Positions 5,166 through 17,759 of a DNA stretch of 64,000 bases are shown piece by piece. The stretch is from contig JAGMAD010000005.1 in NCBI GenBank assembly GCA_023130975.1, positions 22,933-86,932 of the forward strand, read 5' to 3'. Every line of letters starts with the position of its first letter. The first letter of the stretch is position 1. The translations under genes were made by a program, and so were the position numbers. The DNA is from Candidatus Parcubacteria bacterium. Lineage in GTDB: Bacteria; Patescibacteriota; Minisyncoccia; Minisyncoccales; JAGMDC01. The notes beneath the pieces were generated by a model, which had not been told where the DNA came from, searched no databases, and saw nothing but the letters and a program-made list of their open reading frames with translations.

Positions 5166-5236
5166 AGCCGATGGGCAGAATCGAACTGCCGTCGATGATT
5201 TACGAAACCATTGCTTTACCATTAAGCTACATCGGC
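5166..5236 (-). tRNA. tRNA-Thr (anticodon CGU)
   Basis: Hand fold: GCCGAUG-UA-GCUU-AAUGGUA-AAGC-A-AUGGU-UUCGUAA-AUCAU-CGAC-GGCAG-UUCGAUU-CUGCC-CAUCGGC-U. CCA is not encoded. Confidence 0.9.
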
Positions 5237-5293
5237 AAGTAAAGCGGGCCGCCCCTTCGGAGCGAGCCTCGCTCAATTTGCTTAAGCAAATTG

Positions 5294-5364
5294 AGCGGGA
5301 TACGGGAATTGAACCCGTGTCTTAACCTTGGGAAGGTCATGTTGGGCCACTCAACTAATCCCGC
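5294..5364 (-). tRNA. tRNA-Gly (anticodon CCC)
   Basis: Hand fold: GCGGGAU-UA-GUUG-AGUGGCC-CAAC-A-UGACC-UUCCCAA-GGUUA-AGAC-ACGGG-UUCAAUU-CCCGU-AUCCCGC-U. Confidence 0.9.
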
Positions 5365-5876: not shown

Positions 5877-7712
5877 TTAACTCAAAACTTTCAAGTAGAC
5901 ATCAGAAGGGATTTTAATTTTGCCTCTTTCCTTGAGTTTTTTCTTTCCCTTTTTCTGTTTTTCTAAGAGTTTTCTTTTTCTGGTATAGTCACCGCCGTAA
6001 AGAGGAGCAATAACGTCCTTGCCTCTTGCTCTAACTGTTTCCCGGGCAATAATTTTTCCATCAACAACAGCTTGAAGAGCAACGCTAAATTGTTGAGGAG
6101 GCAGAACTTCTTTTATTTTCTTTAAAAACTTCCTGGCTTCTGAATATGCCTTATTTCTGGGAACAATTTTAGAAAATACTTCTTCTTTTTTTTCAGCTAT
6201 CAATGTCTCTATTTTCTTTAAATCAGATTTTTGATATCCTAAAATTTCGTAATTCATAGAGGCATAACCCTGAGAAGCTGACATAAGCTTATCGTAAAAG
6301 CCAGTAATAATTTCTCTTAAAGGACAATAATGTATTAAAAGTAATTTATTTGGTCCCAGATATTCAGTCCCAATATATTTTGTTTCAAATTCATCCAACA
6401 CTTTCATTACTTTGCCTAAATAATCCGAGAGGGTAATAATTTCTAATTTAACATAGGGTTCTTGAATCTTTTTGCCTTCACCCTGCTTGCTTTTTGAGCC
6501 AGCGTAAAGGGAACCCGGCCAGTCAGCTGATGAATAAATTAAAGTTTCTTTATTATTTTCATCAATAATTTTATAAACTACTGAAGGCGAAAAAACTATT
6601 AATTCTAAATCAAACTCTCTGCGAAGACGCTCTACAGCAATTTCTAAATGTAAAGAGCCAAGAAACCCGCAGCGAAATCCTTGTCCAAAAATTTCTTTAT
6701 GCTCTGGCTCAAAATATAAAGAAGCATCATTTAGTTTTAATTTACTTAAAGATTCTTTCAATAAACCGTACTTTTTAGAATTTTCCGGATAAATACTTAC
6801 AAAAACAACCGGCTTCGGCTCCTTATAACCCGGCAAGGCCTCAATATCAACAACTTTTAACTTTTCACTTTTAACTTTTAACTTGGTTATGGTGTCTCCA
6901 ACTCGAACTTTGCCTGGTTCTTTAATGCCAGTAGCGATATAACCGATTTCACCAGCAGACAAAACATCTTTTGGTAAAAATTCTGGTTTAAAATAACCCA
7001 GCTCTTTTATTTTTGCTTCGGTTTCAGAAGCCATCAAGTATATTTCTTTATTAGTTTCTATCTGACCATCTACAACCCGAACATAAGCAATAACCCCTTT
7101 ATAGGCATCGTATTTGGAATCAAAAATCAAAGCCCGAAATGGCTTTTCTTTTTTTTCTATAGGCAAAGGCACCTTCTCTATTACTTTCTCTAAAACCTTC
7201 TCAACATTGGTGCCCTTTTTAGCTGAAATAGATAAAATATCCTGTTCTGAAATATCCAGAATTTTCGCTAATTCTTTTTTTGTTTCTTCAATTTTGGCCG
7301 TGGCTGGAAGCAAATCAATTTTGTTAATTACTGGAATAATGACCAAATCTTGTTTTTTAGCCAATTCTAAATTAGCTAAGGTCTGGGCTTGAATTCCCTT
7401 AATAACATCTACCAACAAAATTGCTCCCTCTACAGCTGCTAAAGAACGAGAAACTTCGTAAGAAAAATCCACATGGCCAGGAGTATCAATTAGATTCAGA
7501 ATGAATCCTTTATACTCCATTCGGCAAGGTTGAAGTTTGATGGTAATTCCTTTTTCTCTTTCTAAGTCCATCATATCTAAAAACTGCTCCTTCATTTTTT
7601 CTTCAGGAACAGCATTAGTTAGTTCTAAAAACCTATCAGCTAAAGTAGATTTACCGTGATCTACGTGCGAAATAATTACAAAATTGCGAATCTGTTTTTT
7701 TATTGTTTCCAT
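5877..7712 (-). CDS. lepA: Elongation factor 4 (LepA)
   Basis: METIKKQIRNFVIISHVDHGKSTLADRFLE...DTPGHVDF...NKIDL show the GTPase motifs. The product is 611 aa from the ATG at 7712. The ORF-track start at 7835 would overlap murJ by 136 nt and is rejected. Confidence 0.93.
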   Translation of the reverse strand: METIKKQIRNFVIISHVDHGKSTLADRFLELTNAVPEEKMKEQFLDMMDLEREKGITIKLQPCRMEYKGFILNLIDTPGHVDFSYEVSRSLAAVEGAILLVDVIKGIQAQTLANLELAKKQDLVIIPVINKIDLLPATAKIEETKKELAKILDISEQDILSISAKKGTNVEKVLEKVIEKVPLPIEKKEKPFRALIFDSKYDAYKGVIAYVRVVDGQIETNKEIYLMASETEAKIKELGYFKPEFLPKDVLSAGEIGYIATGIKEPGKVRVGDTITKLKVKSEKLKVVDIEALPGYKEPKPVVFVSIYPENSKKYGLLKESLSKLKLNDASLYFEPEHKEIFGQGFRCGFLGSLHLEIAVERLRREFDLELIVFSPSVVYKIIDENNKETLIYSSADWPGSLYAGSKSKQGEGKKIQEPYVKLEIITLSDYLGKVMKVLDEFETKYIGTEYLGPNKLLLIHYCPLREIITGFYDKLMSASQGYASMNYEILGYQKSDLKKIETLIAEKKEEVFSKIVPRNKAYSEARKFLKKIKEVLPPQQFSVALQAVVDGKIIARETVRARGKDVIAPLYGGDYTRKRKLLEKQKKGKKKLKERGKIKIPSDVYLKVLS

Positions 7713-9091
7713 TTTAACCGAGTTGAAAATATTAAAAGTAAAGCAAGTTGAAATATAGCTGAAAAAGACAGGGCTAAAGGCAAGCCAATGACTTGAATAT
7801 TTTCTAAATTTTGGATATTGAGAAAGCTGGTCCAAAATTGTTGAAAAGAATTATTAAAAGAAAGTAAATGAACGAAATAAAAACAAAGGAAAACATTTAT
7901 CAGGGTTGCTATTACGCTGGCAAAAGCCGGAATTTTAGTGTTTTGAACAGCATAAAATGCTTTAGCAATCAAAAGAACCAGGGACTGGGCGAAAATTCCA
8001 AAGCAAATCATAGCTAAACAAGCAGAAGTCAATTGGGCGTCTAACAAACTAAACTTCCCTACTCTCAGAATAATATTGACTACTTCTTCTTTAAAAATAA
8101 AAAGGAGAATACTTAAAAATAAACTTAAAAAAAGAATTTTATAAAAAACAGAAAAAAAGATATCATTGAATTTTTCTTTCTGCTTTTTGGCAAATGACAA
8201 ACTCAAGCTGGGAAAAGCAGCCGTGGAAAAAGAAATTGCCACTAAGGTTAAAAGAGGACGAGAAAGATTTTCTGCTAAATTAAAAACAGCTATGCTTCCA
8301 GCGCTCAAAGTAGAAGCAATAATGGTTACTACCACTAAATTAATTTGAGTGGCAGCTAATCCTATAGAGCGAGGAATAGTTAGTTTTATTGTTTTTTTAA
8401 AACCGGGTTCAGAAAAATTAAAAATTTTTTCATACTTAAATCCAGTTTTAAATAAAACCGGAATTTGAATCAAAAAGTGCAAAAGAGCTCCAAAAGCTAC
8501 TCCCCAAGCCAAACCTTTAATACCCATATAAGGAACAAAAAATAAAATGCCGAAAATAATACCAAGATTATACATTATCGGAGCCAAGGAAGTAATGAGA
8601 AATCTTCTAAAGACCCGTAGAATTCCAGAGATTATATTACTCATCCCTAAGATAATCGGGCTTAAAAGCATAATCCTGGTTAAAAGTGTTGTCAGGACTT
8701 TTTTTTCAGCCGAAAAGCCAGGGGCAATCAAAGAAATTAATTGGGGAGCAAATATAAACAAGACGAGAGAAGCGATTATTAAAATAAACAAAAATAAATT
8801 TAAAAGATTGGAGAGATATTGCCAGGCCTTGTCTTTGGAACTAATTAAATACTGGCTGAAAAGAGGAATAATGGCTGCGGAAATAGCACCGGTCATTAAG
8901 ACCATTGTTAAGAAATCCGGGATTTCAAAAGCAGCATAATATATGTCTAATTCGTCTCCAGCGCCGAATTTGCCAGCTAAAAGCCGGTCTCTAATAAAAC
9001 CCAAAAGAGCGCTAATTAAAAAAGCCCCGGCCAATATAAAAGCAGCTGAATTAATGTTTTTGGTTTGGAGGTTAAAAATTCTACGAAACAT
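7700..9091 (-). CDS. murJ: Lipid II flippase MurJ (MviN family)
   Basis: The 463-aa polytopic membrane protein has the N-terminus SAAFILAGAFLISALLGFIRDRLLAGKFGAGDELDIYYAAFEIPD, which is typical of MurJ. Confidence 0.85.
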   Translation of the reverse strand: MFRRIFNLQTKNINSAAFILAGAFLISALLGFIRDRLLAGKFGAGDELDIYYAAFEIPDFLTMVLMTGAISAAIIPLFSQYLISSKDKAWQYLSNLLNLFLFILIIASLVLFIFAPQLISLIAPGFSAEKKVLTTLLTRIMLLSPIILGMSNIISGILRVFRRFLITSLAPIMYNLGIIFGILFFVPYMGIKGLAWGVAFGALLHFLIQIPVLFKTGFKYEKIFNFSEPGFKKTIKLTIPRSIGLAATQINLVVVTIIASTLSAGSIAVFNLAENLSRPLLTLVAISFSTAAFPSLSLSFAKKQKEKFNDIFFSVFYKILFLSLFLSILLFIFKEEVVNIILRVGKFSLLDAQLTSACLAMICFGIFAQSLVLLIAKAFYAVQNTKIPAFASVIATLINVFLCFYFVHLLSFNNSFQQFWTSFLNIQNLENIQVIGLPLALSFSAIFQLALLLIFSTRLKWKQ

Positions 9092-9791: not shown

Positions 9792-9830
9792 AGTTTAATT
9801 TTAACTTTTTTAAAGCAAATAAAAAAGCCC

Positions 9831-10220
9831 AAGCAGGCAATAAGCCGAATTCTGTCTTGGGCAATCATTTATCTATCGCCGAGCACTCAAAATTTTGAGT
9901 GCTCGGTCAAGCGAACTACTTTTTCACTTCGGCAAATCCGGAGATTGCCGAAATGCTTGTTCTTGCACCCGATAAGGATTTAGCCGTTTCACTTCTTCGA
10001 TTAACTCGAAGAACTCGCCAAGCACTCAGCAAACTGAGTGCTTGGCGCCTTAGCTCTTTCGAGCTTCGGCGTCTCTGTTCGCACCTCTAACCTTGCGGTC
10101 GACGGCTGTTAGCCGCTATCTTTTTAGACCAAGCACATAAATTATGTGCTTAAAATGGGTGTTCGGACTTTCCTCTAAGCACTCAGCGAACTGAATGCTC
10201 AGCGATTGCCTTGCCTACTT
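9831..10220 (-). ncRNA. rnpB: RNase P RNA (bacterial type A)
   Basis: The minus strand contains GAGGAAAGUCCGAACACC (CR-I) and ACAGAAUUCGGCUUA (CR-V). P1 is AAGUAGGCAA/UUGCCUGCUU and P2 is GGCAAUC/GAUUGCC. About 390 nt, followed by CUUGGGCUUUUUU. Confidence 0.9.
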
Positions 10221-10268
10221 AGACTGTTTCTATAGTAACAAAATAAAATCAACCTGTCAATGCTTTTA

Positions 10269-10739: not shown

Positions 10740-11978
10740 CTAAACATTTTTAAAGTATTTAATTAAACATTTTTTAAATTTTTCTAAATTCTCGTTTTTC
10801 ACAGTAAAGCCGGCAGCCGGCGCGTGGCCGCCAAAAGTCATTAAAAGCTTTTGACAGCTTTTCATTGCTTTTACAGCATCCATATTAGAAGGCACTCGCA
10901 CTGCGCCCATACTGTTTTCCTTTCTCTTTTTAAAAATAAAAGTGGGCTTTTTATGCTTATTGCAGACCCTCGAAGCTACCGAACCAATTAAGACATTAGG
11001 CCAGCCAATATCCCCTTCAAAAATTACAGAATCAGAGTTATCTAAAATTCTCTCTTCTACCTGTTCTACAATGTCTTTTATCTGAGAACGTCTTGCTTCA
11101 TTTCTGTCCAATAACTTTTCTACTAAATTTTTTGCTTTTCCCTTGTTCTGGCAAGTAAGAAGCAAGTATGCCTCGGTCAAATGGTCTTTAATTTCGCTTA
11201 CATTCAAAGCAGAAACAATTTTTTGAACTTTTTCTTTTTCTTTTAATCCGCCAGCTGGCGAATTTAGAGAGTTAATTTCAAAAAAAACTTTTAATCCTAT
11301 CCGTTGAGTGTCTTTTAGGGACTGAAGCCCTTTTTCAATATATGTTTTGTTATCTTCTTCTCGAACCATCATATCAGCGATAGTAGCTAAAGCCGCTAAT
11401 TCTAAAAAACTATTATCTAATGAATTGCTCATTTTGTCTTTAAGCATAACCTTCGTCAATTCATAAACAAGACCAGCAGCGGCAAATTCTTTAAAGGGAT
11501 AGTTATCGTCTTTTTGTTTTGGGTCAACGATAATTGAGGCATCTGGCAAAGAATCAATTACCTGATGATGGTCAATAATAATTGTTTCCAAACCAAGTTT
11601 TTTGGCTATTTTAACTTCTTCAAAGTTAGTGATACCCAAATCTAAGGCAATAAGCAGAGCTGGCGAGAGATGCTTTAAAAAAGCCAAGGCATTTTTATTG
11701 ATTCCATAACCTTCATTTTCTCGGTCCACAAAATAAACCTCCACACCATAACGAGGACTGACTTCGTCAGTTTTAGTGCCAAAGGCACTATGTCCTCGTT
11801 TGGTGTGGGGGTAAACAGCAGCAATATTCCCTTCCAAATTCTCAATAGCTTCCTCTAAAATAACTACTGAAGCAGTGCCGTCTAAATCAGCATCACCATA
11901 GATAATGATTTTCTCTTTATTTTTGATTGCCTTTAGAATTCTATTAGCTGCTTTTTTTAAATTTTTGATTTCAGGCAT
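10740..11978 (-). CDS. DHH-family phosphoesterase, RecJ-like
   Basis: IIIYGDADLDGTASVVILEE, the DHH motif (IIIDHHQV) and the DHHA1-like C-terminus GGHAPAAG. It contains a 26-codon insertion, listed as a mobile_element at 11738-11811. Confidence 0.8.
   Translation of the reverse strand: MPEIKNLKKAANRILKAIKNKEKIIIYGDADLDGTASVVILEEAIENLEGNIAAVYPHTKRGHSAFGTKTDEVSPRYGVEVYFVDRENEGYGINKNALAFLKHLSPALLIALDLGITNFEEVKIAKKLGLETIIIDHHQVIDSLPDASIIVDPKQKDDNYPFKEFAAAGLVYELTKVMLKDKMSNSLDNSFLELAALATIADMMVREEDNKTYIEKGLQSLKDTQRIGLKVFFEINSLNSPAGGLKEKEKVQKIVSALNVSEIKDHLTEAYLLLTCQNKGKAKNLVEKLLDRNEARRSQIKDIVEQVEERILDNSDSVIFEGDIGWPNVLIGSVASRVCNKHKKPTFIFKKRKENSMGAVRVPSNMDAVKAMKSCQKLLMTFGGHAPAAGFTVKNENLEKFKKCLIKYFKNV
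11738..11811. mobile_element. 74-nt palindromic MITE-like element inserted in frame in the recJ-like gene
   Basis: The terminal inverted repeats are CCTCCACACCATAACGAGGAC and GTCCTCGTTTGGTGTGGGGG. TAAA direct repeats flank it at 11734-11737 and 11812-11815. Element plus duplication is 78 nt. Confidence 0.7.
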
Positions 11979-11990
11979 ATTACCCCTTGA

Positions 11991-12073
11991 CCCCCCACCA
12001 CTTTGTCAAAAGTCAAAATAAATGAGGAAATATTTAGGAAATTTTAGATGGCGTTTTACAAAGTGGTGGGGGG
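11991..12073. mobile_element. 83-nt palindromic MITE-like element, intergenic copy
   Basis: Perfect 16-bp terminal inverted repeats CCCCCCACCACTTTGT (11991-12006) and ACAAAGTGGTGGGGGG (12058-12073). TTGA direct repeats flank it at 11987-11990 and 12074-12077. Confidence 0.7.
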
Positions 12074-12101
12074 TTGATAAGATTTTATGGTTGTGTATAA
12101 T
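12074..12101 (+). promoter_or_regulatory. Candidate plus-strand promoter TTGATA-N16-TATAAT with no downstream ORF
   Basis: TTGATA at 12074-12079 and TATAAT at 12096-12101. The -35 box overlaps the right flanking TTGA of the element. Confidence 0.4.
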
Positions 12102-12330
12102 GAAAATTGCCATGATAGGCACAATAGGAAAGTTTTGAAAACGCGTGAACCGGGACCATAAAAGTTGCCCATTTGGTAACTTTTGGAAAGGTAGCAATAG
12201 GAATGAGATAGGAGCAACTATCAAATGTATTTTTTAGGAGCCGTTTGGCTCAATGCAGATAGCATCCTATCCTTCTCCTATTGTCATATAGCACACTTAC
12301 AATTTCATAGATTTCATTTCTCACGATCAT

Positions 12331-12367
12331 AAGGTATTGCCATATTAGGAATACCTTCCTTTTTTTA
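12331..12367 (+). terminator. Candidate plus-strand intrinsic terminator
   Basis: AAGGTATT (12331-12338), a loop, AATACCTT (12350-12357), then CCTTTTTTT. It is oriented for the plus strand although both neighbouring genes are on the minus strand. Confidence 0.4.
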
Positions 12368-12390
12368 TTATAATGAGCGTCTCCTAAAAA

Positions 12391-13512
12391 TTACTTTCCC
12401 GAGCATATTGCTTCTATTCCTACCAACTTTTCATCAACTAAATAATCAAGCATTGCGCCGCCGCCAGTGGAAACAAAACTAAATTTTTTAATTAAACCAA
12501 CCCTGGTTAAAAACTCAATCGTCTCCCCTCCTCCAACTACTGAAAAAGCTTTACCTTTAACAACAGCTTTGGCAATCTCTCTTGTAGCTTTAGAAAATCT
12601 CTTTTCTTCAGTTTTTCCCAATGGACCATTCCAAAAAATGGTTTTTGCTTTTTTAATTTTTTCAATAAATATTTTTATTGTTTTTTCTCCAATATCACCG
12701 CTATCCACCCAGTCCACAGGAAGAATAATTTTTTCTGGATATTTAAATTTTACATTCTGCCATTCTATTTCTTTAGGTATCAGGCCGCCAATTAAAACAT
12801 AATCAGTTGTTTCAGAAAGTTTGTTAATCAATTTTACTTTTGTTTTTACTTTGGCGCCGCCAATTATTGCTATTAAAGGTTTTTTTGGCTTAAACATTAA
12901 TTGTTTCAATGTCTCTATTTCTTTTTCTACTGAAAAACCAATACCTGAAGGCAAAAACTTTGGCAGACCAGTAATTGAGGCATGGGAACGATGGCAAACA
13001 GCAAAAGCATCATTAATATAAACCCCGCACCTTTTGTCGGCTAACTTTCTTAATTTAGGTGCTGAAGGTACCTTGCTGACAAAAGGTGCGGGGTAAATAT
13101 CGCCTGTTAATTTTGCCAAGTCCTTCGCAAATTTTTCATTATTTTCTTTCTCCCCTTTGTAAAATCTTAAATTCTCCAAAACAACAATATCTCCTGATTC
13201 CATTTTTTCTATTTCCTTTTCAACCTTATCGCCAATACAATCCGAAAAAAACCTAACTTTTTTATTTAATAATTCTCCTAATCTATTGGCAATTGGTCTT
13301 AAGCTAAACTTTTCTTCTCTTTTTTCCGGCCTGCCGAGATGACTAATTATAATAATCTTAGCTTGATTTTTTGCCAAATATTCAATGCTGGGAATAGCTG
13401 CTTTAATCCGAAAATCATCTAAAATATCCCCTTGTTTTGACAAAGGGACATTAAAATCAGTTCTTAATAAAACTCTTTTTCCTTGAAAATCAAAATCTTT
13501 TAATGTCTTCAT
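12391..13512 (-). CDS. pgk: Phosphoglycerate kinase, carrying a 25-codon element-derived insertion
   Basis: KRVLLRTDFNVP, IIISHLGRP, INDAFAVCHRSHAS, GGAKVKTK and STGGGAMLDYL. The ATG overlaps the stop of the upstream ATPase gene (ATGA). Confidence 0.93.
   Translation of the reverse strand: MKTLKDFDFQGKRVLLRTDFNVPLSKQGDILDDFRIKAAIPSIEYLAKNQAKIIIISHLGRPEKREEKFSLRPIANRLGELLNKKVRFFSDCIGDKVEKEIEKMESGDIVVLENLRFYKGEKENNEKFAKDLAKLTGDIYPAPFVSKVPSAPKLRKLADKRCGVYINDAFAVCHRSHASITGLPKFLPSGIGFSVEKEIETLKQLMFKPKKPLIAIIGGAKVKTKVKLINKLSETTDYVLIGGLIPKEIEWQNVKFKYPEKIILPVDWVDSGDIGEKTIKIFIEKIKKAKTIFWNGPLGKTEEKRFSKATREIAKAVVKGKAFSVVGGGETIEFLTRVGLIKKFSFVSTGGGAMLDYLVDEKLVGIEAICSGK
13023..13093. mobile_element. 71-nt palindromic MITE-like element inserted in frame in pgk
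   Basis: Perfect 16-bp terminal inverted repeats CCCCGCACCTTTTGTC (13023-13038) and GACAAAAGGTGCGGGG (13078-13093). TAAA flanks lie at 13019-13022 and 13094-13097. The total of 75 nt equals 25 codons. Confidence 0.75.
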
Positions 13513-15101
13513 TTTTCGTCTTCTTCTTTTTTCAGGGACTCTTCTAAAACTTCTTTTAATTCTTTAGTATTGATTTCTTTTCTTTCGGGCTTTTCTCTTT
13601 TTTCTTGAACTTTTCTATGAGGAGAGAAAAAAATAGGTTCTTTTTCCACTGCTTCATTCAAGGACATACTCGGTTCTTTTTTATCTTCTGTTTTAGTTAT
13701 TTTTTCAAGGCAGGACTTGCAATAAACAGGCCTTACTCCATCCGGCTTAAAAGGAACTTTTATCAACCTACCGCATTCCTGGCATTGAGCATCATAAAGA
13801 ACTGGCAAGGGCCTGACTGGTTCAGCTTCTTTTATTGGTTCTGACCACTGGCTAATTTTTTCTTCAACGATTTTTCTTTCTGTACCGTATTTGGCCCGCG
13901 ATTTTTCAATAATCTCTTCTCTGTTTGAATCTTCTGGCTTTGATGCAGGCAACAGGGTTTCAGCAGAAAATGGCCTGCTGGCTACACCGTCAATCATTAG
14001 CTTTAGATAGATGTTATATTTGGCTAAATTAACTAAATCAGAGGCAAAAAATTCTGGCATAAATTCTCTTTCTAAAAATTGGGCGTCCTCTGCTCCTATT
14101 CGAAAAGAAGCAATAGTGCCTACGTTGCCAAAAACAGCATCTCTGACTGTTTCTTCCATTTGAGCAATATATTGATGAGCCAGAATTAAGGACAAGCGGT
14201 ATTTTCTGGCTTCAGATAAGATATTGACAAAGGACTCGGTGGCAAAGTTTTGAAATTCGTCTACATAAAGGAAAAAATCATTTCTTTTCTCTTCCGGCAT
14301 ATCCACTCTGGACATTGCTGCTAACTGTATTCTGGTAATTAAAAGGGCGCCCAACAAGCGAGAAGCATCCTCCCCTATTCTCCCTTTAGACAAGTTCAAT
14401 ATTAAAATCTTTCCTTTATCCATCACCTCTCTCATATCAATAGATGATTCAACCTGGCCAATAATGTTTCTAATTAAGGGCGCGGAAATAAACTGGCCAA
14501 TTTTGTTTTGAATAGCTGCTGTGGCCTCTATCTCATATCTTTGGGTATACCTGGCAAATTCTTGAACCCAAAATGCTTTTACTACCGGGTCAGTTACTTT
14601 CTCTATCACCTCTTTGCGGTAATCAGTATCAGCCAGCATTCGATTGATGCCCAAAAGAGTGGAACCAGGATATTCTAAAAGAGCTAAAATACAGTTATTT
14701 AAAATATATTCCATTCTGGCTGACCAAACATCAGGCCAAATCTTTTTAAAGACACCCATTAAGCCGCCAGCCACTAAATGCCGTTTTTCAAGAGCTACTT
14801 CTTCCATAATATTAAAAGCAATGGGATAATCTAAGTCAGCGGGATTGAAATAAACAACATCTTTAATTCTATCCTTGGGCACAAAATCAAGAAGATTTTC
14901 TGCTGCCTCGCCATGAGGGTCAACAAAACCTATTCCCTTACCGTCTCTGACGTCTTGGATAGCCATATTCTCCAGCATAGCTGTTTTGCCCATACCAGTT
15001 TTTCCAACTACATAAAGATGCCGACGTCTATCATCGGTCTTGATGCCAAATTTTTTTCTGATATTACGAAAGTTTGTTTCTCCGAAAAAATTAATGTCCA
15101 T
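13509..15101 (-). CDS. VirD4/TraD-like (type IV coupling protein family) P-loop ATPase with a C-terminal CxxC...CxxC zinc ribbon
   Basis: Walker A VVGKTGMGKTAML, Walker B FFLYVDEFQNF, AHQYIAQM, and the C-terminus CQECGRLIKVPFKPDGVRPVYCKSC. I chose the ATG at 15101 because the ORF-track start at 15110 is TTG. Confidence 0.7.
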   Translation of the reverse strand: MDINFFGETNFRNIRKKFGIKTDDRRRHLYVVGKTGMGKTAMLENMAIQDVRDGKGIGFVDPHGEAAENLLDFVPKDRIKDVVYFNPADLDYPIAFNIMEEVALEKRHLVAGGLMGVFKKIWPDVWSARMEYILNNCILALLEYPGSTLLGINRMLADTDYRKEVIEKVTDPVVKAFWVQEFARYTQRYEIEATAAIQNKIGQFISAPLIRNIIGQVESSIDMREVMDKGKILILNLSKGRIGEDASRLLGALLITRIQLAAMSRVDMPEEKRNDFFLYVDEFQNFATESFVNILSEARKYRLSLILAHQYIAQMEETVRDAVFGNVGTIASFRIGAEDAQFLEREFMPEFFASDLVNLAKYNIYLKLMIDGVASRPFSAETLLPASKPEDSNREEIIEKSRAKYGTERKIVEEKISQWSEPIKEAEPVRPLPVLYDAQCQECGRLIKVPFKPDGVRPVYCKSCLEKITKTEDKKEPSMSLNEAVEKEPIFFSPHRKVQEKREKPERKEINTKELKEVLEESLKKEEDEK

Positions 15102-15380
15102 AATTATCAACGAATAACGAATCAGTTACGAATTTACGAATTAATTGAGCGAGGCAAATAATTTTTGGGATATTAAAGCGAGGGGAATAATTTTTGGGAC
15201 AATCCGCAGCGAATTGGCTTGGTCCCCCTCCTTTTCGCGCTTGCGCAAAAGGAGGGGGCAATTCGCGAGTAGCAGTAAATTTCCGCTGGAGAAATTTGCG
15301 TGTACCAAAAGTTACTCCCTGAGCGAAATTCCTAAAAATCACTCTCTAAGCGGTATTCTCAAAAGTTATACTTCCGAGCG
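15102..15380. repeat. 279-nt repeat- and hairpin-rich spacer inside an otherwise tightly packed operon
   Basis: Four ATTCGT hexamers lie next to the ATG. CCCAAAAATTATT occurs twice. A 35-nt GC hairpin CCCCCTCCTTTTCGCGC-TT-GCGCAAAAGGAGGGGG spans 15224-15258. There are three degenerate units of about 27 nt, CGCT(C/T)NG(A/G)(A/G)AGT..TTTT.G. Confidence 0.6.
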
Positions 15381-16670
15381 CTATTCCGTGGGCAATTCGG
15401 GTGGAGCCTCACCTCTCTTGGCCTCAACCCGAGAAATAGAAGGCGCAGCTGTAACTCCTCTACCTGGAAAATGATATAAAGAAGCTAATTCTTCAATGTT
15501 AAGAATAAAATTACCACCTGGCCATGGAAAAAAAGGACTTAATCTTTCAATATAGTTCCTGAACATTTTCCTTTTTCGAACATAAACCCTTCTATTATCT
15601 AAAAACCAAAGCCAAACAGTATGAACCTTAGTGATAGTTCTTTTCATTGGTTTTAATCCATTAAGATCTGCTGTGCCAAAAAGGTCAAAAAAACCCATTG
15701 GGATAGCTTTGTTAGGAGAGAAAAAGACATCTCTTTTCCCTAACTGAAGAAACCTTATACAACATTTAAAAGCGTACTTGCTCGTTTTATCTTCAATGGC
15801 AGACACTACTTTTTTCTCCCCGGGCGTCAGCTCCATTTCCGGAAGAATAGCTCTTTCTTTTTCCTCTGCTTCTTTTGGCACTTCTCCAGTAACTAAGACA
15901 TCTATTGCTTCTTCAATTATTGGTTTTGAAATTGGCGGCTTAGGTCTGTTCACTAATTTATCTACTTCTTTCTTTCCTTTTTCTATAAAATATTTGCTTT
16001 CGTCAAGATGAGAAACCGGCACAGCCGTAATTTGAACCCATAACTGCTCGCCCGGTTTAAATTTTGCCATTCCTTCTAAAAGATTGGACATAGGATCAAT
16101 TCTTTTTTCTTCTTTTGCTACTTCTGGTCTTTCTTCAAAAAATTTAGAATATGTCTTAATGGGATAAACCTCATCTTTTAGCTGATCATAATCACAGCCC
16201 CATATTTCCCAGTCCTTATTAGGAACGTCTTGGGGAACATATTTGGTATAATCATCAACTTCTATAATTTCCAAGTCCGGATACTGGGAATAAAGTACTG
16301 ATTCCACTAAATTACGAGCATTTTCTGGAATTCGAATAAAAAAATGGGGCTCACCCCCAAAACAAGCGATTTCTAAAGAAAAACCTAATTGCGCTTTTCC
16401 TTCAAACCATTTTTCTCTATAATTGGGCGGATCGTAAAAATGCCATAAGCCATTAAAGACAGTTTCCATTGCTTTAATAGGCCTTAAAACCTCTTTGGGC
16501 GGTTTTATTTCCAATACAATGCATCTTATTTTACCAAACCAAACTTGATTTCTCCACCAAAGATAAAGAAATAAAAAGGGCTTAATAAAAATAAAGGGTA
16601 TAATCACCCACCACCAAGTCCTTAAAAAATCCCAAATAGTATTAGAAATTAGAAAAATTTGCTCTTCCAT
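15381..16670 (-). CDS. Membrane-anchored hypothetical protein (429 aa) partnered with the VirD4-like ATPase
   Basis: Trp-rich N-terminal TM region (WDFLRTWWWVIIPFIFIKPFLFLYLWW) followed by a large soluble domain. The C-terminal tail (KRGEAPPELPTE) runs into the GC-rich repeat spacer. Confidence 0.6.
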   Translation of the reverse strand: MEEQIFLISNTIWDFLRTWWWVIIPFIFIKPFLFLYLWWRNQVWFGKIRCIVLEIKPPKEVLRPIKAMETVFNGLWHFYDPPNYREKWFEGKAQLGFSLEIACFGGEPHFFIRIPENARNLVESVLYSQYPDLEIIEVDDYTKYVPQDVPNKDWEIWGCDYDQLKDEVYPIKTYSKFFEERPEVAKEEKRIDPMSNLLEGMAKFKPGEQLWVQITAVPVSHLDESKYFIEKGKKEVDKLVNRPKPPISKPIIEEAIDVLVTGEVPKEAEEKERAILPEMELTPGEKKVVSAIEDKTSKYAFKCCIRFLQLGKRDVFFSPNKAIPMGFFDLFGTADLNGLKPMKRTITKVHTVWLWFLDNRRVYVRKRKMFRNYIERLSPFFPWPGGNFILNIEELASLYHFPGRGVTAAPSISRVEAKRGEAPPELPTE

Positions 16671-16673
16671 TAA

Positions 16674-17759
16674 TTATGCTTCTTTTATGGTGTATTTTCC
16701 TTGAGAATCTCTTAGGAAATATTTTTTGTTCTGCAGATTCAATAGAATGGTATTTTTCTGAACAAAACGTTGGGAGAGAACTTGGTCAGCAATTTCTTTT
16801 GAAGACAGGGGCTTTTCTGATTTTTTTAATACATCAATAATAACATCTTTCACTACTCCTGGCTGATACCCCCAATCGCTCAAGGCATAAAGACCCCGGC
16901 CTACTAAAACAAATCTTGGATCTTTAATTAATTCATTATGAACCGTCTTGACCAGGCAGGGTTTCTCCTCTTGCTCTTGTGCTTCAATAAACTCTGCTAC
17001 TTTAGTAAAGTGTAATGGCTTGTTTTCTCTTTTTATCACTAAAAATGCTTTATCTTTAATTCCTCTCGGATTAATCTCCGGCCAAATAGAAAAGCCGTAT
17101 AATCCTTCTGGCCCTGCTAATATCTGTTTTGAGATTTCAATATAAGAACCTGCCTCTCTCTGCTTGGCAGAACCTTGCTGCCTTTGGTAGTAAGAACCTG
17201 CCTCGCTCTGCTCGACAGAACCTTGATTTTCACGGCTACGCCGTGAAAAATAAGAAGATGAAACACTGATATTTTTTAAAGACAGGGGCTGATTTTTTTT
17301 CTTCAGCTCTTTAATAAAGGAGTCTATAACTTGTTGGGCTGAATTCAAAGCATTTTTATCTATGGTCCAAAAAGGATAAAAATCTTCGGTTTCAGAAAAT
17401 CTTTCAAATTGTTCTCCCAAAGTCAATAAAAATAAAACTTGGGGTTTAAACTTTTTTCCTCCAAGTTTTTCTAAAAGTAAATCTTCTCTCTTTAGTCCAC
17501 CGCAATCCTTTAATTCTTTGGCAAAACCCTGAAAGGCCTCTTGAGATATCTGTTCTGCTTTTCCCTTGACTTTTTTAAGCCCATCTTCTTCTATCTGGCG
17601 CACTCTTTCCCGGGTAATATTATAACTTTTGCCAATTGATTCTAATGTCTCTTTTTTCTCTATTCCAAAACCAAAACGTCGGCTTATAATATCTTTAGTT
17701 CTTTCCTGCGGTAAATCTTTTAGAATATCATTACAAATTTTTTGATAATTAACAAACAT
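16674..17759 (-). CDS. DNA-binding protein: N-terminal sigma-70 region-4-like HTH plus C-terminal HARE-HTH-like domains
   Basis: RRFGFGIEKKETLESIGKSYNITRERVRQIEEDGLKKV matches the region 4.2 pattern. The C-terminal PRFVLVGRGLYALSDWGY pattern is HARE-HTH-like, from memory. Confidence 0.6.
   Translation of the reverse strand: MFVNYQKICNDILKDLPQERTKDIISRRFGFGIEKKETLESIGKSYNITRERVRQIEEDGLKKVKGKAEQISQEAFQGFAKELKDCGGLKREDLLLEKLGGKKFKPQVLFLLTLGEQFERFSETEDFYPFWTIDKNALNSAQQVIDSFIKELKKKNQPLSLKNISVSSSYFSRRSRENQGSVEQSEAGSYYQRQQGSAKQREAGSYIEISKQILAGPEGLYGFSIWPEINPRGIKDKAFLVIKRENKPLHFTKVAEFIEAQEQEEKPCLVKTVHNELIKDPRFVLVGRGLYALSDWGYQPGVVKDVIIDVLKKSEKPLSSKEIADQVLSQRFVQKNTILLNLQNKKYFLRDSQGKYTIKEA
17127..17222. 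repeat. Diverged 48-nt tandem duplication in the linker of the HTH protein
   Basis: It encodes GSVEQSEAGSYYQRQQ / GSAKQREAGSYIEISK. The 36-nt cores CAAGGTTCTG.C.AGCAGAG.GAGGCAGGTTCTTA match at about 30 of 36 positions. Confidence 0.65.

Follow-up and report, generated by a model that had tools for sequence, protein, structure and literature searches.

A spacer in a Parcubacteria operon probably represents an inserted member of a structured, non-coding repeat family

A 64,000-nt stretch of a Candidatus Parcubacteria bacterium genome (contig JAGMAD010000005.1; this whole stretch is referred to as the window) contains a 279-nt intercistronic spacer (positions 15102-15380, minus strand) between the gene encoding a DUF8128 membrane protein and the gene encoding a TrwB/VirD4-like ATPase. 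Analyses of this spacer and of related loci, which are denoted by L numbers, showed that it is an insertion, that similar elements are dispersed over other operon junctions, that their fold has been kept by compensatory changes and that the intact part of the window copy is constrained. We consider it probable, though by no means certain, that the spacer represents a lineage-specific insertion of a non-coding, structured interspersed repeat, similar in kind to MITEs (miniature inverted-repeat transposable elements), repetitive extragenic palindromic (REP) sequences and Correia elements, which is co-transcribed with the operon and constrained, and which belongs to a previously undescribed family in Nealsonbacteria-like Patescibacteria. 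In searches of the literature, no account of repeats of this sort was found for bacteria of the candidate phyla radiation (CPR).

The original prediction on this DNA had offered three explanations for the spacer: a cis-regulatory leader, a small RNA or a graveyard of short elements. The last of these came nearest, as the outer left arms of the repeat do look as if they are decaying (80% identity to the orthologous copy in L099), but the rest is one intact member conserved at 94-98%. The spacer is better described as one intact, constrained family member accompanied by remnant arms.

The spacer and its operon

The genes around the spacer are as follows.

16674-17759, minus strand: gene for a sigma-70-region-4/HARE-HTH protein
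15381-16670, minus strand: DUF8128 membrane-protein gene, ending in TAG
13509-15101, minus strand: TrwB/VirD4-like ATPase gene, with its ATG at 15101
12391-13512, minus strand: pgk
10740-11978, minus strand: DHH phosphoesterase gene

The spacer had been singled out as a repeat-rich, structured interruption of a tightly spaced operon, and this was borne out: the gap of 279 nt compares with a gap of 3 nt between the HTH (helix-turn-helix) and membrane-protein genes and an overlap of 4 nt between the ATPase gene and pgk. The sense-strand RNA of the spacer folds at -94 kcal/mol, compared to -70 kcal/mol for shuffled sequences (z = -5.3). The G+C content is 43% for the spacer with 20 flanking nt and 49% for the element core, as against approximately 33% for the genome.

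The short repeats that had been noticed in the spacer were recovered, and most could be assigned a place in the repeat. Tandem Repeats Finder detected a period of 27 (2.2 copies with 72% matches at 15305-15364), in agreement with the three predicted units of about 27 nt at 15358-15380, 15331-15352 and 15305-15325. The units can be aligned to one another, to two CCCAAAAATTATT...CTCGC units in reverse complement, and to the final codons of pgk in both the window and L001; their alignment with the reverse-complemented CCCAAAAATTATT units identifies them as the left and right arms of an inverted repeat, the 27-nt units being left arms of the closing stem. The two exact copies of CCCAAAAATTATT (15186-15198 and 15157-15169) are spaced 29 nt apart, exactly as predicted, and correspond to the right arms; allowing one mismatch, CCCAAAAATTATT has 4 matches in the window versus 1.08 expected. 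The predicted 35-nt GC hairpin, with perfectly complementary 12-nt arms, was found at 15224-15258 and corresponds to an exchangeable tip hairpin designated P4. Four ATTCGT hexamers occur at 15110-15141, with the last ending 8 nt (rather than the predicted 9 nt) before the ATPase ATG; their clustering is unique in the window (3 paired matches versus 0.06 expected), whereas the hexamer overall is not enriched (18 versus 23 expected). The sequence GAGCGAGGCA, found at 15147-15156 (plus strand), does recur in the HTH gene (17199-17208, minus strand) as had been claimed, but this second occurrence is in the opposite orientation, inside coding sequence, and is probably due to chance.

The spacer thus consists of three left arms followed by a single core, two right arms and the ATTCGT tail. 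The features of the window, including a second family member at the pgk-DHH junction, are listed below with scores from a position weight matrix (PWM) for the arms where these apply.

15358..15380, minus strand: left arm 1, CGCTCGGAAGTATAACTTTTGAG, directly 3' of the membrane-protein TAG; PWM score 27.4; probably a remnant arm
15331..15352, minus strand: left arm 2, CGCTTAGAGAGTGATTTTTAGG, with partial pairing to right arm 2; inverted repeat I2
15305..15325, minus strand: left arm 3, CGCTCAGGGAGTAACTTTTGG, functional 5' strand of the closing stem P1; inverted repeat I1 (19 nt, 84%)
15259..15304, minus strand: core 5' half, comprising TACACGC, hairpin P2, junction TGCTACTC and the P3 5' strand GCGAATTG
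15224..15258, minus strand: P4 tip hairpin of type A, CCCCCTCCTTTTGCGCAAGCGCGAAAAGGAGGGGG; inverted repeat I3; swappable module
15199..15223, minus strand: core 3' half, comprising the near-invariant bulge ACCAAGCC, the P3 3' strand AATTCGC and TGCGGATTGT
15178..15198, minus strand: right arm 1, CCCAAAAATTATTCCCCTCGC, 3' strand of P1
15149..15169, minus strand: right arm 2, CCCAAAAATTATTTGCCTCGC, whose reverse complement contains GAGCGAGGCA
15102..15148, minus strand: tail, TCAATTA, 4 x ATTCGT(A/T) and GATAATT, reaching the ATPase ATG
12121..12404, minus strand: second, decayed or rearranged family member; PWM score 31.6 at 12383-12404; fold z = -5.6

The intact element, as matched by covariance models, occupies 15172-15329. 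The minimum-free-energy structure pairs left arm 3 with right arm 1 and, in part, left arm 2 with right arm 2, and has left arm 1 folded back upon itself. Hairpin P2 consists of GCAAATTTCT CCAGC GGAAATTTAC, with a loop, CCAGCG, that is conserved in the family, and the core 5' half is near-identical in L084, L101, L083, L092 and L001. The left arm of the decayed member, TGCTCGGGAAAGTAATTTTTAGG, encodes the final codons and the stop codon of pgk and closes a structure of approximately 290 nt. The 5' end of this member matches the L103 member between the L25 and SLT genes and the orthologous L001 member; covariance models gave no match at 12121..12404.

The two open reading frames (ORFs) called in the spacer had been judged spurious, and this judgement holds, as no reading frame is conserved between the window spacer, L099 and the other copies. 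An 83-codon bridging ORF (15091-15342), which ends just past the ATPase ATG, was rejected on the same grounds.

A dispersed family at operon junctions

An intact element is non-coding and approximately 150 nt long. Its closing stem of approximately 20 bp is formed by a left arm, cGCTCGGgAAgTAAyTTTTTGG, and a right arm, CCCAAAAAyTAyTTCCCTCGC; within it are the hairpin with the CCAGCG loop, a second inner stem and a GC-rich, variable tip hairpin, followed by the near-invariant ACCAWGC bulge. The arms are complementary over approximately 20 nt in every member, and their outermost 6 nt differ (GCTCGG versus the reverse complement GCGAGG). The element is also asymmetric, with the P2 hairpin only on the 5' side and the ACCAWGC bulge only on the 3' side. 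By blastn, a metagenome scan and covariance models, 14 members were found at 8 intra-operon junctions:

pgk-DHH: L001, L075, L065, L060
rpsB-tsf: L084, L101
rpoB-rpoC: L083
rnc-rpsP: L092
secD-secF: L098
L25-SLT: L103
membrane protein-ATPase: window, orthologous L099, L033
ATPase-pgk: L068 (antisense)

A genome-collection search with the ATPase yielded 80 syntenic loci from Nealsonbacteria and other Parcubacteria, and blastn of the spacer against these produced a match in L001 at a different junction, pgk-DHH, in which the flanking core was 96-100% identical and the central hairpin was different. The metagenome scan, with the pattern GGTACACGC N{87,117} GCGGATTGTCCC, returned 15 loci, three of which are real members (L084, L083 and L092); the remaining 12 had matched by chance in coding DNA rich in GC. 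With covariance models R1 and R2, L075, L065, L060, L033, L098, L103, L101 and L068 were added. A regex scan also picked out two candidates that were discarded as false positives: the match in L010 lies within metK coding sequence, and that in L068 within what is probably an RNase P RNA region. Two core-pattern scans of viral contigs gave no matches and hence no evidence of a phage origin.

Locus L101 comes from the same assembly (ERZ23499054) as L081, a contig in which the window locus has the identical 279-nt spacer, and this gives the window genome a minimum of two intact copies. Approximately 105 kb could be sampled from this genome, and two intact copies and one decayed copy (pgk-DHH) were found.

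The placement of the copies follows a common pattern. Thirteen of the 14, or approximately 8 of 9 independent sites, are in sense orientation to both neighbours. The left arm mostly starts 0-7 nt after the upstream stop codon (approximately 36 nt in L033, the exception), and it contains that stop codon in the case of pgk (window and L001) and L25 (L103). The right arm is followed by an A/U-rich tail of 20-140 nt before the next start codon. Tails with ATTCGY repeats homologous to those of the window are located just upstream of the start codons of pgk in L035, rpoC in L083 and DHH in L015, with tandem ATTCG(T/C) repeats at L083 5871-5927, L035 5774-5870, L015 7238-7292 and L099 3065-3103; those in L035 form an inverted pair (ACGAAT x4 ... 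ATTCG x4). The ATTCG(T/C) tandem may constitute a short module in its own right, perhaps a site for translation initiation or protein binding. Another tail motif, the heptamer (A)TTTTCA(A), recurs upstream of tsf (L084 725-745 and L101 10938-10956) and in L100 (2630-2650); these heptamers also fill the "empty" L25-SLT spacer of the window genome (L101 7300-7365) and run into the first codons of the next gene.

Filled and empty sites among relatives

The gap between the membrane-protein and ATPase genes could be measured in 79 of the 80 syntenic loci and is mostly 5-40 nt. Two of the three close relatives have a short gap at this junction: in L001, the closest genome (85-89% amino-acid identity), it is 11 nt, as it also is in L005, and in L098 (88% amino-acid identity) it is 5 nt. 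By comparison, L099 (89% amino-acid identity) carries an orthologous 272-nt spacer with the same layout. As the same junction is short in most relatives, the spacer is identified as an insertion. The pgk-DHH gap is likewise tight in many relatives (-14 to +6 nt) and sporadically expanded. Comparison of the window genome with the genomes of L001 (JAUWMZ01) and L098 (JAGLYZ01) showed the following.

membrane protein-ATPase: window filled (279 nt); JAUWMZ01 empty (11 nt); JAGLYZ01 empty (5 nt)
rpsB-tsf: window genome filled (161 nt); JAUWMZ01 solo right arm (46 nt); JAGLYZ01 empty (1 nt)
secD-secF: window tight; JAGLYZ01 filled (166 nt)
L25-SLT: window genome empty (36 nt); JAUWMZ01 filled (144 nt); JAGLYZ01 empty (19 nt)

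At the level of contigs, the rpsB-tsf site holds the element in L101 and L084, only a solo right arm in L103 and nothing in L105, and the L25-SLT site holds the element in L103 but not in L101 or L105. The rpsB-tsf junction of the L001 genome (L103 10813-10859) retains only the right arm, CCATAAAAATTATTTTTCCTCGCTCATTC, which shows directly that copies decay by internal deletion and explains the supernumerary arms in the window.

The P4 tip exists in three types. Type A is found in the window copy at the membrane protein-ATPase junction and in the rpsB-tsf copy of L084, and type B (GAACACTCAACAAGTTGAGTGTTC) in the orthologous L099 copy, in the rpsB-tsf copy of the window genome and in L001; L083 and L092 have type C (CCCCGCCTTCGGGCGGGG). 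This pattern of exchange would best be explained by gene conversion among the copies.

Not every long spacer at these junctions belongs to the family; those in L015, L070, L064, L024, L100 and others were compared and are unrelated to it in sequence. In other lineages, long inserts of unrelated sequence occur at L078 2659-2784, L055 3104-3241, L064 3810-3998 and L100 2475-2659, and there are further ones in the pgk-DHH spacers of L065 and L075. Several are very stable, down to -0.45 kcal/mol per nt, and L100 has AT-rich GAAACCTG repeats. The membrane protein-ATPase and pgk-DHH junctions seem to be recurrent landing sites for different elements.

Maintenance of the fold and sequence constraint

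Covariation was measured on an alignment of eight sequences (A6), and a covariance-model alignment (A7) was also relied on; MAFFT and RNAalifold applied to all 14 members aligned the divergent subfamilies poorly and left the inner helices unrecovered. In A6, 90.9% of cells are paired, compared to 78% in shuffled and 40-48% in slid controls. The original prediction had proposed a structure-conservation analysis of homologous spacers in related genomes; in A6, 29 of 48 pairs show changes on both sides, versus 11.5 in shuffled and 5-8 in slid controls, and none of 500 shuffles reached any of the observed pairing measures. These data support the fold and indicate that it is kept by compensatory changes. 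Fold z-scores of -5.3, -4.2 and -7.4 likewise support structure.

Changes of this kind can be seen helix by helix. The P1 pairs covary across members and P3 shows compensatory changes, including a recent G-C to A-U replacement in L092. Other recent cases are a G-C to A-U change in the type B P4 tip of L099 relative to L001 and L101, and several in the arms of L084 relative to L101. Across the family the P2 stem changes completely (AAATTTC, AAATCTC, ATTCGCC, AAAATC, GAATC and GTTCGCT) and the CCAGCG loop is kept; L098, L075, L033, L065, L103 and L068 are members with a different stem and the same loop. P2 carries a 14-nt insertion in L083 and L092. The hairpin followed by ACCAWGC is kept in 13 of the 14 members, L060 having GCCATGC.

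The orthologous pair formed by the window and L099 copies gave the following identities.

Flanking genes, all positions: 86-87%
Flanking genes, third codon positions: 71-73%
Left arms 1 and 2: 80%, near the neutral rate
Left arm 3 and 5' core (15259-15325): 97%
3' core and right arm 1: 98%
Right arm 2: 97%
ATTCGT tail: 94%
P4 tip: 40% (swapped)

The intact part is under constraint, being more conserved than synonymous sites. Adjacent coding windows show the usual 84-89% identity to L099, so the high identity of the element does not stem from a broad recombination tract.

Proposed mode of action

If the spacer is such an interspersed repeat, the elements would have been copied between operon junctions by some machinery and would exchange sequence by gene conversion. 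Each would be transcribed within the polycistronic mRNA and fold into a long rod. In the window operon this rod would break the stop-start coupling between the membrane-protein and ATPase genes, so that the ATPase would have to initiate on its own, as we propose, from the unstructured, A/U-rich ATTCGT tail. By analogy with Correia elements, in which a hairpin bound or cleaved by RNase III provides a precedent (PMC2649163), the double-stranded rod is probably a processing or stability determinant, for example an RNase III substrate. RNase III is encoded in this clade (rnc in L092).

Several observations weigh against an interspersed repeat of this sort. Neither of the two sites compared, rpsB-tsf and membrane protein-ATPase, has a clear target-site duplication; the filled and empty rpsB-tsf sites allow a duplication of "TA", which amounts to two nt in AT-rich DNA, and the membrane protein-ATPase site does not fit. 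A transposase or other mobilising enzyme was not seen in approximately 1 Mb of loci examined, and the copy number is low, at two intact copies and one decayed copy per approximately 105 kb. The combination of conserved loop and junction nucleotides, variable peripheral hairpins and strong conservation across genomes is seen more typically in functional RNAs than in selfish MITEs. Moreover, neither the fold energies (-94.0 kcal/mol for the sense and -92.4 kcal/mol for the antisense strand) nor the counts of G-U and A-C pairs, which are similar, discriminate between an RNA and a DNA hairpin, and GC skew suggests that the minus strand is the leading strand, so that the sense-orientation bias is confounded with the direction of replication.

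Alternative explanations

The strongest rival, which we regard as possible yet distinctly less probable than an inserted repeat, is a dedicated cis-acting intercistronic functional RNA, with a role in punctuation, processing or self-cleavage, that has been recruited to several housekeeping operons. The GUAC sequence, the CCAGCG loop and the hairpin with the ACCAWGC bulge would then be bound by a protein or RNase or form a catalytic core. Conserved single-stranded motifs do stand beside covarying stems, with a free periphery (P4 types A, B and C and the P2 insertion), and the core (97-98%) and the locus-specific tail (94%) are far better conserved than synonymous sites (72%). The placement within housekeeping operons, the orientation of 13 of 14 copies and a left arm that is flush with the stop codon or supplies it point the same way. 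However, the patchy distribution of filled and empty sites in close relatives means that no single copy is essential, one copy (L068) is antisense, and the orientation bias could reflect the direction of replication. Neither the G-U and A-C counts nor the fold energy holds a strand-specific signal, and no known ribozyme or riboswitch model in Rfam matches. An Rfam search of the spacer had been proposed along with the structure analysis and came back empty at E <= 10, as did searches at the L084, L092 and L099 copies at E <= 5; over the whole window, Rfam 15 at the gathering threshold found only RNase P RNA and tRNAs.

A more elaborate version of the functional RNA, slightly more doubtful again, would make the family a new RNA class, structured, acting in cis and serving to punctuate the polycistronic mRNAs of CPR bacteria with reduced genomes. 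Such an RNA could cleave itself as a ribozyme or serve as a dedicated recognition module for an RNase or an RNA-binding protein. The GUAC junction, the CCAGCG loop and the hairpin with the ACCAWGC bulge would be its core, and it would copy itself between junctions after stop codons and bring its own A/U-rich ATTCGT initiation tail.

It appears very unlikely that the element acts at the level of DNA, as a set of protein-binding sites or as a single-stranded-DNA hairpin for an HUH/Y1-type or other recombinase. This would agree with arm tips that both carry CTCG on the same strand (GCTCGG ... CCTCGC), so that the ends are not a true inverted repeat, with an orientation bias that tracks the probable leading strand, with the lack of an evident target-site duplication and with the roughly equal folding of the sense and antisense strands. 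On the other hand, neither an HUH transposase nor another recombinase was seen in the vicinity of any copy, the single closing stem around a multi-helix core is unlike the separate left- and right-end hairpins of IS200/IS605 or short REP units, and a conserved tail beside start codons would be hard to explain. An origin of transfer (oriT) for the neighbouring VirD4-like ATPase was considered and rejected, as copies elsewhere are located between ribosomal and RNA polymerase genes.

The two remaining explanations, both raised in the original prediction, are even less credible. A riboswitch, attenuator or protein-binding leader specific to the VirD4-like ATPase gene would account for a highly structured element directly upstream of the ATPase start that is conserved in L099, but the same element lies at seven other unrelated junctions, where it is found upstream of tsf, rpoC, rpsP, secF, DHH and the SLT gene, and L001, L005, L098 and the majority of the 79 relatives lack it in front of the corresponding ATPase gene; it also has no Rfam match and no terminator-like site. 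The distribution of the element has already largely refuted such a leader. An independently transcribed small RNA gene between the two protein genes, to which the compact, stable and conserved structure of approximately 150 nt would be suited, is just as improbable: with a left arm that adjoins or overlaps the preceding stop codon there is no space for a promoter, several copies occupy different junctions, and in two cases (pgk in the window and L001, L25 in L103) the protein encoded upstream has its end specified by the arm. A promoter and terminator scan found no sigma-70-like promoter or intrinsic terminator on the minus (sense) strand within 15102-15380, and the GC hairpin is followed by ACCAAGCC and not by a run of T.

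Comparison with known small repeats

In function the element is most like the small structured interspersed repeats, i.e., Correia repeat enclosed elements (CREE), enterobacterial repetitive intergenic consensus (ERIC) sequences, REP and bacterial interspersed mosaic elements (REP/BIME), mycobacterial interspersed repetitive units (MIRU) and bcr1. Membership in any of these named classes is not established; some characters of a MITE are present, and those that define REP, MIRU and CREE are not.

CREE (also termed NEMIS) of Neisseria are non-coding elements of approximately 100-155 bp with inverted-repeat ends and a conserved directional core, and they often lie between a promoter and a gene and hence in mRNA (PMC2649163). 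The family described here resembles them in size range, inverted-repeat ends, a conserved directional core, dispersal, insertions that differ between close relatives and remnant fragments. Unlike CREE, with which it shares no sequence similarity, it has a conserved hairpin loop and bulge and a strong sense-orientation bias, and it occurs at approximately 2-3 copies per 105 kb as opposed to approximately 100-250 copies per genome. CREE also have a TA target duplication, IHF sites and promoter-forming ends, whereas no promoter-like site was found here. The CREE core motifs given in PMC2649163 (CCGGTACGG / TCAGGACAA core ends) are not present in the spacer sequence, which was read directly for them. 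The resemblance to CREE is one of possible mode of action and not of ancestry.

MIRU are located in the intercistronic spacers of operons, have ends that overlap the neighbouring genes, and contain imperfect inverted repeats and GC-rich internal repeats; they number approximately 40-50 copies per genome and have been suggested to be MITE-like (PMC3184786, citing Supply 1997). Our elements resemble MIRU in being intercistronic and in sense orientation (13 of 14), and in having a left arm that supplies the stop and last codons of pgk (window and L001) or L25 (L103). MIRU units are 40-100 bp long, are often tandem and contain small ORFs that bridge the neighbours, whereas the present family has a multi-helix fold of approximately 150 nt, and no conserved bridging ORF was found in it.

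REP/BIME and ERIC are comparable as intergenic, palindromic repeats; they are transcribed and, inside operons, stabilise or process mRNA (PMC3184786). REPs, however, are simple stem-loops of 21-65 bp that are present in high copy and linked to REP-associated tyrosine transposases (RAYTs), as against a low-copy element of approximately 150 nt with four helices, and ERIC is a 127-bp imperfect palindrome found in both orientations, as against an asymmetric element. Both are proteobacterial, and the family described here comes from an unrelated phylum.

A generic MITE, such as bcr1 of the Bacillus cereus group, is less than 200 bp long, has terminal inverted repeats and lacks a transposase gene (PMC3184786). 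The present family is similar in size, in terminal inverted repeats around a core, in its stable predicted RNA stem-loop and in insertion polymorphism; its copies are dispersed, with filled and empty sites, and have no conserved ORF. It differs from a MITE in that the arm tips are not truly inverted, that no parent insertion sequence with matching ends is known and that orthologous copies are conserved well above the neutral rate.

Neighbouring features

Among other features of the window, the pgk-DHH junction (11979-12390, minus strand), which the original prediction had passed over, is a 412-nt spacer that is very structured as a whole (z = -5.6). Just upstream of the DHH start it holds a separate hairpin (approximately 11990-12075) with perfect arms of 16-17 bp (CCCCCCACCACTTTGT ... 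ACAAAGTGGTGGGGGG) and an AT-rich loop of approximately 50 nt; an orthologous version of this long hairpin is found in L098.

The spacer at 5255-5293, between tRNA genes at 5166-5236 and 5294-5364, contains the palindromes GAGCGAGCCTCGCTC and CGCTCAATTTGC TTAA GCAAATTGAGCG. These share 13 nt (GCCTCGCTCAATT) with right arm 2 and look like a mini REP-like unit built from the arm-tip motif; the match to the tRNA spacer reported in the original prediction is real. A further match to the arms, GCTTGGGGAGTAGCTTTTGG at 8490-8509 (minus strand), has 17 of its 20 positions in common with left arm 3 and a PWM score of 27.9. This match is in frame (GLAWGVAFGA) within a MurJ-like gene (7700-9091) and is probably due to chance, though unexpectedly strong.

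The bacterial class A RNase P RNA of the window (9826-10221, minus strand) scores 105.4 bits against a gathering score of 100, and this low score suggests a divergent RNase P RNA of the CPR type. Downstream of tsf, L101 (14443-17628) and L103 (11841-15090) have stretches with few called genes and one LAGLIDADG endonuclease ORF each, which may be intron-containing rRNA genes, as are common in CPR bacteria.

Significance

Small interspersed repeats have hardly been described in CPR bacteria, which have tiny, tightly packed genomes. The family reported here interrupts tightly coupled housekeeping operons, namely rpoB-rpoC, rpsB-tsf, secD-secF and the DUF8128-ATPase-pgk string. It also represents a trap for gene callers, as the left arm supplies stop codons and spurious ORFs cross the element. 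Should the element be only a MITE-like parasite, it would provide a marker for genome dynamics and gene conversion in uncultured lineages; if its conservation reflects function, the family would be a candidate for a new RNA class.

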